64,000 nt of DNA. It comes from an uncultured Myxococcales bacterium (GTDB lineage: Bacteria > Myxococcota > B64-G9). Positions 28,961-33,736 of the stretch are shown piece by piece. Position 1 is the stretch's first letter, and each line of letters opens with the position of its first letter. Below the pieces are notes generated by a model. That model did not search any database and was not told the origin of the DNA. It saw nothing but the letters and a program-made list of their open reading frames with translations. The position numbers and the translations under genes were made by a program. The stretch is taken from positions 50-64,049 of the forward strand of contig CAZWFN010000016.1 of NCBI GenBank assembly GCA_964633205.1. The letters are read 5' to 3'.

Positions 28961-30025
28961 TCACTCCTCCAGCACGGTCTCGATCCAGCCGCCGCCGATC
29001 AGGGTCTGGTCGCGGTAGCAGACCGCGGCCTGGCCGGGGGTGATGGCGCTCTGGGGCCGGTCGAAGGTGATGCGGGCGCGGCCGTCGGGCTCGAGCTGGT
29101 AGCGGGCCGGGGCGGGGCGGTGGCGCGAGCGGATCTGGACCTGGCAGCGGCCGCTGCGGCGGTCGGCGCAGGCCGGGTGCAGGCGGAAGCCGGCGGCGCG
29201 CAGGCCGTGGGCTGCGAGCCGGCGCGCGTCGCGGGTCAGCTCGATGCGCGCGCCGGCGGCGTCGATGGCGCGCACCCAGGCGCGGCTGCCCAGCGCCAGA
29301 CCCAGCCCGCGGCGCTGGCCCACGGTGTAGCGGTGGATGCCCGGGTGGCGGCCGATCTCGGCGCCGTGTTCGTCCACCACCGGCCCCGGCCGGGCCGCTG
29401 CGCCGAAGCGCTGCCGCAGCGCCTCGGGGAAGGTGCCGGCGTCGGCCGCCAGGCAGGCGTCCTGGCTCTCGGCCGCGGCCGCGGCCGGCAGCCCGCGGGC
29501 GGCGGCGGCGGCGCGCACCGCGGCCTTGGTGGTATCGCCGATCGGCAGCCGCAGCCGCTCGAGCTGCTCGGGCGCGAGGGCGAACAGGAAGTAGGACTGA
29601 TCCTTGACCGCGTCGCGGCCGCGCAGCAGCACCGCTCGGCCGCCGGCGCGGCCGATGCGGGCGTGGTGGCCGGTGGCCAGCCAGCGGGCGCCGCCGGCGT
29701 CGGCCGCGGCCAGCAAGCGGGCGAACTTCAGCCGCGGGTTGCACCAGGTGCAGGGGTTGGGCGTGCGGCCGGCCCGGTAGGCCTCCCAGCAGGGCCGCAG
29801 CACCTCCTGCTCGAAGGCCCGGCGCACGTCGAGCACCTGGTGGTCGATGCCGAGCGCCGCTGCCACCGCGGCCGCCTCTGCCATGGCCGCTCGGGCCGCG
29901 GGCCCGTCGTCGAGCAGCAGGCTGGCGCCGCTGACCCGCAGGCCCTGCTCGCACAGCAGGGCCGCGGCCAGGGCCGAGTCCACCCCGCCGCTCAGCGCCA
30001 CCAGCACCCCGCGTTCAGCCGTCAT
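28961..30025 (-). CDS. mnmA: tRNA-specific 2-thiouridylase MnmA
   Basis: VLVALSGGVDSALAAALL (PP-loop), NPCTWCNPRLKFARLL, KDQSYFLFAL, catalytic Cys region. Confidence 0.85.
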   Translation of the reverse strand: MTAERGVLVALSGGVDSALAAALLCEQGLRVSGASLLLDDGPAARAAMAEAAAVAAALGIDHQVLDVRRAFEQEVLRPCWEAYRAGRTPNPCTWCNPRLKFARLLAAADAGGARWLATGHHARIGRAGGRAVLLRGRDAVKDQSYFLFALAPEQLERLRLPIGDTTKAAVRAAAAARGLPAAAAAESQDACLAADAGTFPEALRQRFGAAARPGPVVDEHGAEIGRHPGIHRYTVGQRRGLGLALGSRAWVRAIDAAGARIELTRDARRLAAHGLRAAGFRLHPACADRRSGRCQVQIRSRHRPAPARYQLEPDGRARITFDRPQSAITPGQAAVCYRDQTLIGGGWIETVLEE

Positions 30026-30824
30026 CGTCCAGATCCAGCACCTCGTCGGCCGCGCCGGAGCGCAGCCCGGCCAGGTCGAGCGCGGCATAGGTGTAGCCGG
30101 CCCGGAGCAACGCCTCGCGCAGGACCCGGCGCTGCTGCAGCGCCCGGTCCAGCTGCGCGGCCTCGAGCTCCACCAGGCCCAGCGGCCCGTGGTCGCGCAC
30201 CCGCAGCGGGCCGAAGCCCAGCCCGGCCACGGCGGCCTCGGCCCGGGCCACCCGCGCCAGCCGGGCCGGCTCCAGCGGCTGCTGGTAGGGGATGCGGGTG
30301 GCCAGGCAGGCGGCCGCCGGCCGGTCCCAGTTGGCCAGCCCGGCGGCCCGGGCCAGCCGGCGCACCGCGGCCTTGTCCAGGCCCAGCTCCTCCAGCGGGG
30401 CGCGCACGCCCAGCGCGTCGCGGGCGGCCATGCCCGGCCGATACTGCCGGCGGTCGTCGGCGTTGCCGCCGTCGAGCACCAGCGCCAGGCCCTGCTCGCG
30501 GGCCAGCGCGCACAGGGCGCTGTAGCGCAGCTGCTTGCAGTGGTAGCAGCGATCCGGCGCGTTGCGCCGCACCCGCTCGTCGGCCAGCTCGTCCAGATCC
30601 GCGAACTGGAAGCGGGCGCCCAGCGCCCGCGCCAGGGCCGCGGCGGCAGCGGCCTCGTCCGGCGCCTGCAGCGGCGAGCGCACGGTCACGGCCAGGCAGC
30701 CATCGCCCAGCGCCTCCACCGCCGTGGCCAGCAGCAGGCTGGAATCCACCCCGCCCGAGAAGGCCACCAGGGCGCTGTCCCAGCGGCGCAGCCAGGCGAT
30801 CAGGCGCTGGTGTTCGTCGGGCAT
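30015..30824 (-). CDS. LarE-family PP-loop ATPase (ATP-dependent sulfur transferase, TIGR00268-like)
   Basis: ALVAFSGGVDSS, PDRCYHCK, VLDGGNADDRRQYRPG, AACLATRIPY align to LarE motifs VAFSGGIDS, PDSWYYAK, VLDGxNxDDxxDYRPG, ASCSVSSRFPY. Confidence 0.75.
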   Translation of the reverse strand: MPDEHQRLIAWLRRWDSALVAFSGGVDSSLLLATAVEALGDGCLAVTVRSPLQAPDEAAAAAALARALGARFQFADLDELADERVRRNAPDRCYHCKQLRYSALCALAREQGLALVLDGGNADDRRQYRPGMAARDALGVRAPLEELGLDKAAVRRLARAAGLANWDRPAAACLATRIPYQQPLEPARLARVARAEAAVAGLGFGPLRVRDHGPLGLVELEAAQLDRALQQRRVLREALLRAGYTYAALDLAGLRSGAADEVLDLDDDG

Positions 30825-30851
30825 GGGCGGCGTCGCCTCCCCGGCGCCGGT

Positions 30852-31793
30852 TCAGATCCCGGCGCCGCCCTCGAAGTGCTCGCGCCGGGCCCCGGCCTGG
30901 GTCACCCGGCTGCCGGCCGGCAGGTCCTGGGTCAGCCAGACGTTGCCGCCCACCACCGAGCCGGCGCCGAGGCGCACCCGGCCCAGGATGGTGGCGCCGG
31001 AGTAGATGATCACGTCGTCCTCGACGATGGGATGGCGGGCCACGCCCTTGATCGGCTGGCCGTGCTCGTCGAGCGGGAAGCTCTTGGCCCCCAGGGTCAC
31101 GCCCTGGTAGATGCGCACCCGGTCGCCGATGTGGCAGGTCTCGCCGATCACCACCCCGGTGCCGTGGTCGATGAAGAAGTGCTCGCCGATGTGGGCGCCG
31201 GGATGGATGTCGATGCCGGTCTGGCTGTGGGCGTGCTCGGTGACGATGCGCGGGATCAGCGGCACATCGAGGTGGTGGAGCTCGTGGGCCAGCCGGTAGT
31301 TGGTGATGGCCAGGATGCCCGGGTAGGCGAAGATGGCCTCGTCGTGGCTGCTGGCCGCCGGATCGCCCTCGTAGGCCGCGCGCACGTCGGTGGCCAGCAG
31401 GCGCTGTACGTCCGGCAGGCGGGCGACGAACTGCCGGGTCACCGCCCGGGCGTCCTTGTCGCAGCTGGGGCAATAGGTGGGATCCTCGTCGCAAACGAAA
31501 CACAGGCCGCGCTGGATCTGCTGCTCGAGCACCCGCAGCACCTCGTCGAGGTTGGCGCCGACGTGGAAGCGCATGGTCTCGTCGGTCAGGTCCGAGGTGC
31601 CGAAGTAGCCCGGAAACAGCACCGCCCGCAGCTGCTCGATCACCTGCTCCAGCACCTGGCGCGAAGGCAGGATGCGCCGGCAGTTGGCCGTGCGGCTGCG
31701 GCGGGTCAGGATGTCGCCGCTGGTGCACAGCCGCTCGACCACCTCGCTCAAGATGGGCTGGACCTCGGGTGACAGGGGCCTGGCGCCGGTCAC
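30852..31793 (-). CDS. cysE: Serine O-acetyltransferase CysE (long form)
   Basis: [49 protein letters not shown] hexapeptide repeats. GTG start overlaps the cysK stop (GTGA). Confidence 0.8.
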
Positions 31794-32813: not shown

Positions 32814-33254
32814 TCAGATGTAGTACATCGGCGGCTCCTCGGTCTTGGCCCGCTGCCGGTCGGCCAGCTGCTGCAGGTCGAGCCCGGCCATGACCTGCTG
32901 CAGCGCCCGGCCCATCTCGATCCACACCCCGCGGGCCACGCAGTGCTGCTGGCGGTCGCAGGCGGCGTCGCCGGCGGTGCAGTCGACCAGGTCCAGCGGG
33001 CCCTCCAGCACCCGGATCACCTGCTCGACGTTGATGGTGGCCGGTTCCCGGGTCAGCTCGAAGCCGCCGCCGGCGCCGCGGGTGGCGCGCACCAGCCCGG
33101 CGGTCTTGAGCCCGGTCAGCAGGTTGTACAGGTACTTGCGCGACACGGCGGTGCAGCGGGCGATGGTGTCCATCATCACCGGCCCCTGGCCGTGGCGCAG
33201 GGCCAGCTCGATCATCACCCGCAGCCCGTAGCGGCCCTTGGTCGAGACCTTCAT
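32814..33254 (-). CDS. Rrf2-family transcriptional regulator (IscR/CymR-like) with three clustered Cys
   Basis: [18 protein letters not shown] w[17 protein letters not shown] gives Cys spacing C-x6-C-x5-C. Confidence 0.8.
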
Positions 33255-33484
33255 CCGCCGCGGGCCCGCTTCCAGATGGCCACCAGCGAGTCGGCGCCGA
33301 AGTGCAGCTGCACCAGCTCCCAGCCGGCGCGGCCGCGCTCGTTGAGCAGCTCGGCCACGCCGCCCATCTCGTCGTCGGGCACCTCGCGGGCGTCGCACTG
33401 GCCCGCGCCCTGGCCGCAAAAGTAGACCAGCTTGCTGAACTGCTGCGCCGGATGTCGGGTGATCGTGTACTCGAACTCGCTCAT
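33251..33484 (-). CDS. DUF4177-like small protein
   Basis: MSEFEYTI...LNERGRAGWELVQL...AIWKRARGG matches the DUF4177 pattern (WEYK...LNxxGxxGWELV...FKR). Overlaps the Rrf2 start. Confidence 0.5.
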   Translation of the reverse strand: MSEFEYTITRHPAQQFSKLVYFCGQGAGQCDAREVPDDEMGGVAELLNERGRAGWELVQLHFGADSLVAIWKRARGG

Positions 33485-33502
33485 CTTCGCCTCTCCTCGG
33501 GC

Positions 33503-33736
33503 TCAGCCGCCGCCGGCCAGCAGCACGAACTGCACGTCGTCGCCCGGCTGCAGCCGGGTCCCCGGGCCGCTGCGCCGGCCGTTGACCACCGCGCTGATGC
33601 GGCGCAGATCCTCTGCCGCGTAACCCAGCGAGTCCAGCAACTGCTCGACGGTGGTCTCAGCGGCGACCTCCAGCCGGCGGCTGTTCTCCGGCCAGGGGCG
33701 CCGAATGGGACCGAAGAAGCTGACGCTCAGCTCCAT
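33503..33736 (-). CDS. ThiS/MoaD-like ubiquitin-fold sulfur-carrier protein ending in Gly-Gly
   Basis: 77 aa, ...VNGRRSGPGTRLQPGDDVQFVLLAGGG with C-terminal GG. First gene of the cysK-cysE-larE-mnmA operon. Confidence 0.6.
   Translation of the reverse strand: MELSVSFFGPIRRPWPENSRRLEVAAETTVEQLLDSLGYAAEDLRRISAVVNGRRSGPGTRLQPGDDVQFVLLAGGG

Follow-up and report, generated by a model that had tools for sequence, protein, structure and literature searches.

The operon and its gene products

The subject of this analysis is an operon of seven co-directional minus-strand open reading frames (ORFs) at positions 28961-33736 of a 64-kb window, that is, the whole stretch of DNA analysed, which comes from contig CAZWFN010000016.1 of an uncultured Myxococcales bacterium and has a guanine-plus-cytosine (GC) content of about 71%. 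Profile searches confirmed the families that an earlier note had given to the seven products, with DUF4177 matched below threshold. In the direction of transcription, the genes encode a ThiS/MoaD-like sulfur-carrier protein of 77 amino acids (aa) that ends in LLAGGG (T; 33503-33736; Pfam ThiS, E = 9.7e-8), a DUF4177-like small protein of 77 aa (D; 33251-33484; named from a sub-threshold PF13783 match and synteny), an Rrf2-family repressor of 146 aa (R; 32814-33254; PF02082, 124 bits), the O-acetylserine sulfhydrylase A CysK of 314 aa (K; 31790-32734; TIGR01139), the long-form serine O-acetyltransferase CysE of 313 aa (E; 30852-31793; NF041874), a LarE of the [4Fe-4S] type (L; 30015-30824; TIGR00268) and the C-type tRNA 2-thiouridine(34) synthase MnmA of 354 aa (M; 28961-30025; NF001138). 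The letters in brackets are used below to write gene orders, together with N for NifS and F for ThiF. Three starts were revised, to 33254 for Rrf2, probably 32734 for CysK (32743 is the other possible start) and 30025 for MnmA, and these match independent gene calls on related contigs. The packing by overlapping stop and start codons that had been described for the whole operon stands at three of the six junctions, DUF4177/Rrf2 (ATGA, -4), CysK/CysE (GTGA, -4) and LarE/MnmA (-11), and fails at the other three, which are gaps of 18, 79 and 27 nucleotides (nt). A terminator-like hairpin at 34138-34116 ends the upstream membrane-protein gene. Long plus-strand ORFs that run across the operon (e.g. 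28655-31009 and 29847-31772) were rejected as high-GC antisense artefacts, as both the GC pattern at third positions and the family matches speak for the frames on the minus strand.

The product of the lead gene had been taken for a beta-grasp protein of the ThiS/MoaD type with a conserved terminal GG, and both parts of this description held. The carrier passes PF02597 (32.9 bits against a cutoff of 22.5). Because it fails the ThiS equivalog TIGR01683 (17.3 bits against 37.45) and gives no match to the MoaD models, it is a distinct small clade within the ThiS/MoaD superfamily, neither ThiS proper nor MoaD proper. A word-indexed search of 5.8 billion proteins returned 42 homologues, 41 of which were aligned. 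Invariant across these 41 are the C-terminal V71-L-L-A-G-G-G77 and an N-terminal signature, F-x-G-P-x-x-x-P-W-x-E (F7, G9, P10, P14, W15 and E17), so that the full signature reads FFGPIRRPWPE...VLLAGGG. The family is small, since a HMMER pass over 1.84 billion cluster representatives gave only 37 of them at E <= 1e-10 (230 at E <= 1e-3), and nearly all the named sources are uncultured Myxococcota or 'Deltaproteobacteria' metagenome-assembled genomes (MAGs). The AlphaFold2 model built from the homologue alignment is a beta-grasp with the order beta-beta-alpha-beta-beta-beta (predicted local distance difference test score, pLDDT, 84.9), and the solved structures that Foldseek matched best were SAMP1, mycobacterial MoaD, ubiquitin, TtuB and Urm1, all with probability 1.00. 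Two more adjoining ThiS-family genes (77 and 98 aa) were seen on two related contigs (L010, 17789-18315, minus strand; L014, 17356-17882), next to a gene for an NrfD-like polysulfide-reductase membrane subunit and 7 kb from the carrier operon.

The last two genes of the operon encode PP-loop enzymes with the same CxxC...C cluster motif. LarE passes TIGR00268 (281.7 bits against 150) and aligns with the LarE of Lactiplantibacillus plantarum (169 bits) in the PP-loop FSGGVDSS and in the RVR and (C)LATRIPY motifs; the phosphate-binding Ser180, Arg212 and Arg214 of the L. plantarum enzyme align to a Thr and to an L-R-V-R-D motif. Its cluster ligands are Cys93, Cys96 and Cys173. The motif is kept in the six sulfur-operon LarEs that were aligned, and all 11 of the Fe-S-type sulfur-operon LarEs that were checked have CY[HL]CK, which settles in the affirmative the question of a conserved Cys-x-x-Cys (Cys93/Cys96). 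The LarE of Thermotoga maritima belongs to the same family, with the RVR and CLATR motifs and with [4Fe-4S] ligands at nearly coincident positions, Cys92/95/172, and receives sulfur from IscS in vitro. It differs from the protein described here in the gene context, which in the window is not larB/larC but a position after CysE with an overlap into MnmA, and in the donor, which would here be a protein thiocarboxylate and not IscS. The closest Myxococcota homologues of the window LarE stand in T-R-E-L, R-K-L-M or R-L contexts, never next to larB/larC. The protein is 50% identical to the LarE of a larE-larB-larC operon and equally close to other sulfur-operon LarEs, and a neighbour-joining tree of the sulfur-operon LarEs with the larEBC-operon LarE is star-like. 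On account of this identity and of the tree, the protein is probably a LarE of the ordinary Fe-S type, its gene having been relocated to a sulfur-supply operon, with no sign of a new enzymatic function. The description of a LarE-like protein without assigned function is thus superseded, the equivalog being passed and the motifs kept; the idea of a neofunctionalised paralogue was likewise dropped, as the tree shows no separate subfamily.

MnmA passes NF001138 (317.2 bits against 284) and carries P-C92-T-W-C95-N and D-A-C191, i.e. CxxC...C and not DxxC...C, which is conserved in the orthologues. It lacks the upstream CC motif, like the variant described for Campylobacter and Helicobacter. The C-type MnmA was defined by Shigi (2020) and is [4Fe-4S]-dependent in Thermus. 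The only sulfur sources shown to work in vitro for the Fe-S subclasses of LarE and MnmA are a cysteine desulfurase with cysteine and, for MnmA, also sulfide; for the MnmA of Thermus thermophilus the authors state that an unidentified sulfur carrier 'could exist' (Shigi, 2020).

The Rrf2 regulator carries, as the earlier note had pointed out, three clustered cysteines of the kind found in Fe-S sensors. They form an IscR-like triad, Cys92-x6-Cys99-x5-Cys105, which is kept in the orthologues and is probably an Fe-S or redox input. The NCBIfam model that fits best is CymR NF047409, which it matches with 129.4 bits where the cutoff is 195, and it likewise falls short of the IscR equivalog models (98.9 bits against 207.55). 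The closest solved structures are 4cic, which ends in GYMYYI, and the Bacillus subtilis CymR 2y75, with the Escherichia coli IscR far more distant. A partnership with CysK like that of CymR had been anticipated, and a feature then overlooked now speaks for it: the C-terminal tail is PPMYYI, in the form M-[YF]-[YNHF]-I in 11 of 11 orthologues. The corresponding tail of the Staphylococcus aureus CymR, ...G-Y-M-F-Y-I, has been crystallised in the active site of CysK, with an affinity of 25 nM, and its terminal Ile is common to the tails of CysE (bioRxiv 10.1101/2024.09.19.614015). The tail of the window protein therefore suggests a CysK-binding element of the CymR type, and the protein as a whole has the appearance of a CymR-type repressor that depends on CysK and has, in addition, kept an IscR-like cluster site.

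By its profile scores the pyridoxal-phosphate (PLP) enzyme is a type-A CysK and not CysM, as it passes the CysK equivalog TIGR01139 (433.6 bits against 350.95) and none of the CysM models (289-301 bits against cutoffs of 394-413). CysE has hexapeptide repeats, barely passes NF041874 (151.3 bits against 150), stays below TIGR01172 (159.7 against 210.65) and matches the structure of the long-form serine acetyltransferase of Bacteroides, 3f1x, with 337 bits, N-terminal domain included. The classical CysK-docking tail GAGI ends CysE in the window and in 10 of the 11 orthologues with recovered C-termini; two lineage-G CysE proteins end earlier. In L013/L015, the lineage in which CysE alone comes after the carrier and CysK is on a separate contig, the CysE sequence as recovered stops short of the GAGI tail. 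The N-terminal region of CysE holds a cluster, C-F-x-C...(C)-P-x-C (Cys98/101/108/111; 31461-31502), which is conserved in the orthologues of this CysE clade, has no Cys counterparts in 3f1x, the closest solved long-form structure, and may be a metal or redox site.

The second gene product is best called DUF4177-like, with 19.1 bits against the PF13783 cutoff of 25; two orthologues score 21.3 and 24.0 bits, also below the cutoff, and one gives no match. The orthologue alignment shows two conserved cysteines, C23 and C30, and the motif GWELVQL. The gene lies directly 3' of the carrier gene in at least seven lineages. A word-index homologue search returned a single near-identical match, and the AlphaFold2 model that resulted was of low quality (pLDDT 66).

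Upstream of the carrier gene, a conserved element (33737-33790, minus strand) combines a -35-like TTGACT (33789-33784), an AT-rich block, AGTAGTTAAGTAAGTTGGTGGAC (33772-33750), and an AGGAGG-type ribosome-binding site. The element is nearly invariant between the window and the related loci L008 and L007, the rest of the spacer being unalignable, and the roughly 75 nt before the carrier ATG are almost invariant between the window and an 88%-related contig, in an otherwise divergent spacer. At the same position other lineages have TTGAC-N17-TATAGT followed by an inverted repeat of the type AGTC...GACT. From this conservation, the element is probably a promoter together with a predicted Rrf2 operator. 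The AT-rich 23-mer is unique in the window, and a second operator site, for example upstream of the NifS gene, was not found there with a degenerate pattern too coarse to carry weight. A sigma-70 consensus scan missed the element, its sole match lying downstream of MnmA. No riboswitch or leader RNA is seen at the operon, since an Rfam scan of 27800-35300 at E <= 1 gave only a chance miRNA match. Farther from the carrier gene, some 130-190 nt upstream (33869-33925), there are two tandem 23-nt direct repeats (GACAATTACACCT...) and an inverted copy (TTACACCTCC/GGAGGTGTAA). The tandem repeats (33880-33925) are missing from the 88%-related contig and are probably not part of the system.

Gene order and sulfur genes in related lineages

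Related loci were gathered by exact-protein look-ups, a one-genome-per-species scan and a metagenome scan, and were annotated by tblastn and Pfam; all the lineage counts rest on metagenomic contigs of uneven length. The arrangement of the operon is not chance, because the gene order recurs on contigs of other samples and in about 12 lineages, so that the synteny reaches well beyond this strain. The order T-D-R-K-E-L-M is common to the window and L005/L008. Other loci read T-R-K-E-L-N-F (L002, on a contig with dsr genes), T-D-K-E-M-F (L020), T-D-R-K-E (L016), T-R-K-E (L011/L040), T-K-E-L (L035), T-R-E-L (L012 and L028), T-R-E followed by two more Rrf2 genes (L010, L014 and L026), T-E (L013, L015 and L044) and T-L (L009 and L037). 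The set of L013 is split, with T-E on one contig and K-L-M on another contig (L030) of the same MAG. In the minimal ThiS-LarE units of L009 and L037 the genes are about 12-25 nt apart. A more distant sister clade that keeps GPIRRPWPE has F-T pairs (L017/L050, L018, L019 and L048/49). Among the roughly 12 lineages with at least 3 kb of sequence downstream of the carrier gene, CysE follows in 10, Rrf2 and CysK in 7 each, LarE in 6 and MnmA in 2.

In L002, the T-R-K-E-L-N-F block is bracketed by two copies of a gene for 73-76 aa (9723-9944 and 15872-16102) that share 95% identity across 56 aa. A PIN-domain gene comes after the second of them, and dsrC and dsrMKJOP-like genes flank the region. The bracketing pair is possibly a duplicated antitoxin that marks an insertion.

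Activation of a carrier of this kind calls for an E1 enzyme (ThiF), which, as previously stated, the operon itself does not encode. ThiF genes occur within the operon or adjacent to it in six further lineages, inside it in L002 and L020 and beside the carrier gene in the four distant lineages with F-T pairs; in L020 a MobA-like gene comes after ThiF. This finding strengthens the thiocarboxylate idea, and the genomic association suggests that the C-terminus of the carrier is adenylated and thiocarboxylated by an E1. It also bears on a different use of the beta-grasp protein, not as a sulfur carrier but as a regulatory or scaffold partner, e.g. of CysE, CysK or Rrf2. Such a role would fit the tight adjacency to CysE and Rrf2, the ThiS-CysE two-gene units (L013, L015 and L044) and the clade-specific cysteine cluster of CysE, which has no known role; an invariant flexible GGG end and a repeated pairing with a ThiF-type E1 are, however, hallmarks of adenylation and thiocarboxylation, and a regulatory partner is very unlikely.

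Another conceivable source of the thiocarboxylate is LarE itself, which would act on the GGG end with a sulfide held on its cluster and so replace or supplement the E1. The conversion of a carboxylate through an acyl-adenylate to a thiocarboxylate is the same chemistry as that of E1 plus sulfur transfer, the ThiS-LarE pairs of L009 and L037 have no adjoining E1, and the window operon has LarE and no E1. Against this, the equivalents of the residues that bind the phosphate of the mononucleotide of pyridinium-3,5-biscarboxylic acid (P2CMN) are kept (Ser/Thr180, Arg212 and Arg214), the divergence from the larEBC-operon LarE is no greater than that from other sulfur-operon LarEs, L002 has both LarE and ThiF, and the sister clade pairs the carrier with ThiF. 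This activity of LarE is most improbable.

For the mobilisation of sulfur, the window encodes a NifS-type cysteine desulfurase (20755-21957, minus strand; TIGR03402, 584.8 bits against 530.75) about 7 kb downstream of the operon on the same strand. Lying outside the operon, it is a candidate for the mobilisation of sulfur, and it is 46% identical to the desulfurase of L002, the only relative with a cysteine desulfurase inside the operon. The presence of this enzyme in the L002 operon points to cysteine as the source of the sulfur rather than as the product. A JAMM peptidase (Mec), which had also been sought, was not found: a motif screen of about 50 loci gave no credible ORF with H-x-H-x7-S-x2-D, the few regular-expression matches lying in spurious overlapping frames, and the Pfam lists of the annotated loci held no JAB match.

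These results bear directly on the proposal that the operon works like CysO-CysM-Mec of Mycobacterium tuberculosis. In such a route, the carrier thiocarboxylate would attack the aminoacrylate formed from O-acetylserine on CysK, cysteine would then be released, and LarE and MnmA would be co-regulated passengers. The GG protein does stand beside a cysteine synthase, CysE and CysK are the most constant neighbours of the carrier, and some operons hold nothing more. Genes for peroxiredoxin, rubrerythrin, thioredoxin/DsbD and glutaredoxin or ferredoxin:thioredoxin reductase (Grx/FTR) recur near the carrier loci, an oxidative-stress type of neighbourhood. An oxidative-stress rationale has been given for CysO in Mycobacterium. 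Further, ThiS/MoaD genes in operons with an E1, a JAB peptidase and a cysteine synthase are an established class, and ThiS-like genes beside cysteine synthases have been catalogued (Iyer et al., 2006). That class, however, always has the JAB/JAMM peptidase that releases the cysteine, which is found in none of the loci here; the E1s of the related loci, where present, lack a rhodanese domain; and the PLP enzyme is not CysM but a CysK of type A, with the tail-binding lifestyle of CysE and CymR and with CysE for the O-acetylserine route. In addition, the NifS of the L002 operon would make cysteine the donor and the route circular, and the two units that consist only of ThiS and LarE would be left unexplained. 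For ThiS and cysteine-synthase operons without JAB, cysteine has been read as the source of the sulfur of the thiocarboxylate (Iyer et al., 2006). The analogy to CysO-CysM that had been drawn for the operon is not supported by this comparison, and a CysO-like route to cysteine is unlikely, and less likely than a transfer of sulfur from the carrier to LarE and MnmA.

Several neighbouring genes were recorded in addition. A minus-strand run at 19144-22068 comprises NifS, a rubrerythrin-like protein, a Tpx/AhpC peroxiredoxin and ferritin, and in other lineages genes for AhpC, rubrerythrin and MntP lie immediately upstream of the carrier gene, which suggests a shared iron and oxidative-stress neighbourhood. 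At 24177-24937 (minus strand) lies a pair of genes, the first for a glutaredoxin and the second for a fusion of a ferredoxin:thioredoxin-reductase-like catalytic subunit with a rubredoxin-like domain; L005, L012 and L028 have the pair too, a few genes downstream of their sulfur operons. After MnmA, the region 25083-28923 (minus strand) encodes a DUF3280-like lipoprotein and a Cys-rich repeat protein of 947 aa with MopE-like metal-binding motifs, a pairing that is kept in synteny by the closest relative alone. Farther along, at 14396-16495 (minus strand), a protein of 699 aa with a C-terminal phosphopantetheine-attachment site adjoins a protein of 490 aa without a Pfam match.

A proposed route of sulfur from cysteine to LarE and MnmA

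The reading put forward here is that of a CymR-type controlled operon in which cysteine is made and its sulfur is loaded on the carrier as a thiocarboxylate and passed to the Fe-S-type LarE and MnmA; it is held tentatively, as a real possibility that stops short of being probable. The operon would be a self-repressed sulfur-supply unit. At low O-acetylserine, the M-Y-Y-I tail of Rrf2 would dock in CysK and the complex would repress transcription at the operator that overlaps the promoter, with the three-cysteine site of Rrf2 probably adding an Fe-S or redox input. On derepression, CysE and CysK would make cysteine, from which the NifS-type desulfurase, whose gene is 7 kb distant in the window and part of the operon in a relative, would take the sulfur. 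An E1 of the MoeB/ThiF type, encoded elsewhere in the genome, would adenylate the GGG end of the carrier and lead to the thiocarboxylate, which would then give its sulfur to the open iron of the [4Fe-4S] clusters in both PP-loop enzymes. LarE would use it to convert P2CMN to the bisthiocarboxylic acid mononucleotide P2TMN for the nickel-pincer cofactor, and the C-type MnmA to form 2-thiouridine at position 34 (s2U34) in tRNA. We infer the thiocarboxylation of the carrier, the direction in which sulfur flows, the identity of the acceptors and the binding to the operator; the strongest support comes from the repeated T-L pairing, the K-L-M block, the cluster motif shared by LarE and MnmA, and the membership of E1 and desulfurase genes in the operons of relatives. 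A more specific form of the proposal, with a dedicated ubiquitin-fold thiocarboxylate carrier as the physiological donor for both the [4Fe-4S]-type LarE and the C-type MnmA, gated by a CymR/IscR-hybrid Rrf2, is doubtful.

A number of observations weigh against this route. That the carrier feeds sulfur to LarE or MnmA is suggested, and not proven, by genomic inference, the link to each enzyme being one of gene context. No E1 (ThiF) was found by tblastn in the 64-kb window. LarE depends on LarB and LarC for its substrate, and these two (the Pfam families AIRC and Ni_insertion) gave no match in the part of the window whose genes were scanned, about 14-37 kb, or within the flanks of 7-10 kb around those related loci for which annotation was precomputed. 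Both the Fe-S LarE and the C-type MnmA run in vitro on a cysteine desulfurase alone (IscS or SufS), and the carrier is therefore not chemically required. The most constant neighbour of the carrier is CysE, rather than LarE or MnmA. The operons of four to five lineages consist of the carrier, the cysteine-synthesis genes and Rrf2 only, and operons with just the carrier and cysteine genes agree no less well with a carrier that acts in cysteine metabolism directly. Finally, the DUF4177-like protein is without a role in the proposed model.

The desulfurase results also suit another explanation, that of co-regulation only. In this case a CymR-type regulon would have been collected in one place, on the pattern of the Firmicute cymR-iscS-mnmA operon, the carrier would serve an acceptor encoded elsewhere, or several in the manner of TtuB/TtuC, and LarE and MnmA would receive their sulfur directly from a desulfurase, as the acceptance of sulfur from IscS or SufS in vitro allows. 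The gene content after the carrier varies widely among lineages, the MobA-like gene after ThiF in L020 hints at a link to the molybdenum cofactor, and similar mixed sulfur islands with ThiS, ThiF, CysK, CysE, LarE, MnmA and NifS occur around prokaryotic Thi4 genes (PMC13325395). On the other side, none of the loci examined has a known thiocarboxylate acceptor, be it ThiG, ThiH, MoaE, TtuA or another, close to the carrier, the failure at the ThiS equivalog and the missing MoaD match do not favour service to those pathways, and two-gene units of ThiS and LarE are difficult to account for if there is no direct link. Co-regulation only is fairly unlikely.

Relation to described systems

The donation of sulfur from the carrier to LarE and MnmA has its closest precedent in TtuB-TtuC-TtuA of T. 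thermophilus, which makes 5-methyl-2-thiouridine at position 54 (s2T54) in tRNA. The donation of sulfur by the TtuB thiocarboxylate (TtuB-COSH) to the cluster of TtuA is established there. Both systems have a ThiS-like beta-grasp carrier with a Gly-rich C-terminus. The Thermus carrier is activated by an E1 of the MoeB/ThiF type that need not be encoded beside it, as proposed for the operon, and the acceptor is again a PP-loop ATPase with a three-cysteine [4Fe-4S] cluster whose open iron takes the sulfur. The myxobacterial operon differs in having no TtuA, the candidate acceptors being LarE and the C-type MnmA, for neither of which a thiocarboxylate donor has ever been shown; in a carrier that matches TtuB at the fold level only (sequence E = 0.66); and in the place of the carrier gene, which is a cysteine-synthesis operon under a CymR-like repressor.

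On the regulatory side, the comparison leads to the Firmicutes, where Bacillus and Staphylococcus have a cymR-iscS(yrvO)-mnmA(trmU) operon. There too an Rrf2 protein with an M-F/Y-Y-I tail, which forms the CymR-CysK complex, is co-transcribed with MnmA and a sulfur supply. CymR of B. subtilis lacks the three cysteines at the aligned positions, whereas the Rrf2 of the window has the IscR-like triad and scores below the CymR cutoff; CysK-CysE-LarE stand here in the place of the desulfurase, and a ThiS-like gene leads. By analogy, the Firmicute operon appears to be a functional cousin of the myxobacterial one. The sulfur-relay islands around Thi4 resemble the loci described here in the recurrence of ThiS, ThiF, CysK, CysE, LarE, MnmA and NifS together, and differ from them in Thi4, which is missing here. 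Oliveira-Filho et al. (2026; PMC13325395) analysed this co-occurrence around Thi4 only, and not the carrier family, the Rrf2 hybrid or the link to LarE and MnmA. Each part of the operon belongs to a described family; as far as our searches show, what is undescribed in the literature is the carrier clade, its pairing with an Fe-S LarE and a C-type MnmA, and an Rrf2 that joins a CymR tail to an IscR-like triad.

If the link among these genes is one of co-regulation only, the operon is a tidy case of a cysteine regulon gathered in one place in uncultured Myxococcota, and no more. The Rrf2 protein appears to merge two sensing modes formerly seen in separate proteins, the CymR tail and the IscR-like triad. 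For the in vivo sulfur donors of the Fe-S LarE and MnmA, the operon family offers a concrete candidate, a carrier of 77 aa with a recognisable signature, and the ThiS-LarE pairs are natural minimal units for biochemistry. If the proposed route is true, the mechanism by which TtuB serves TtuA would be extended to a cofactor pathway and to the main bacterial enzyme of wobble thiolation.

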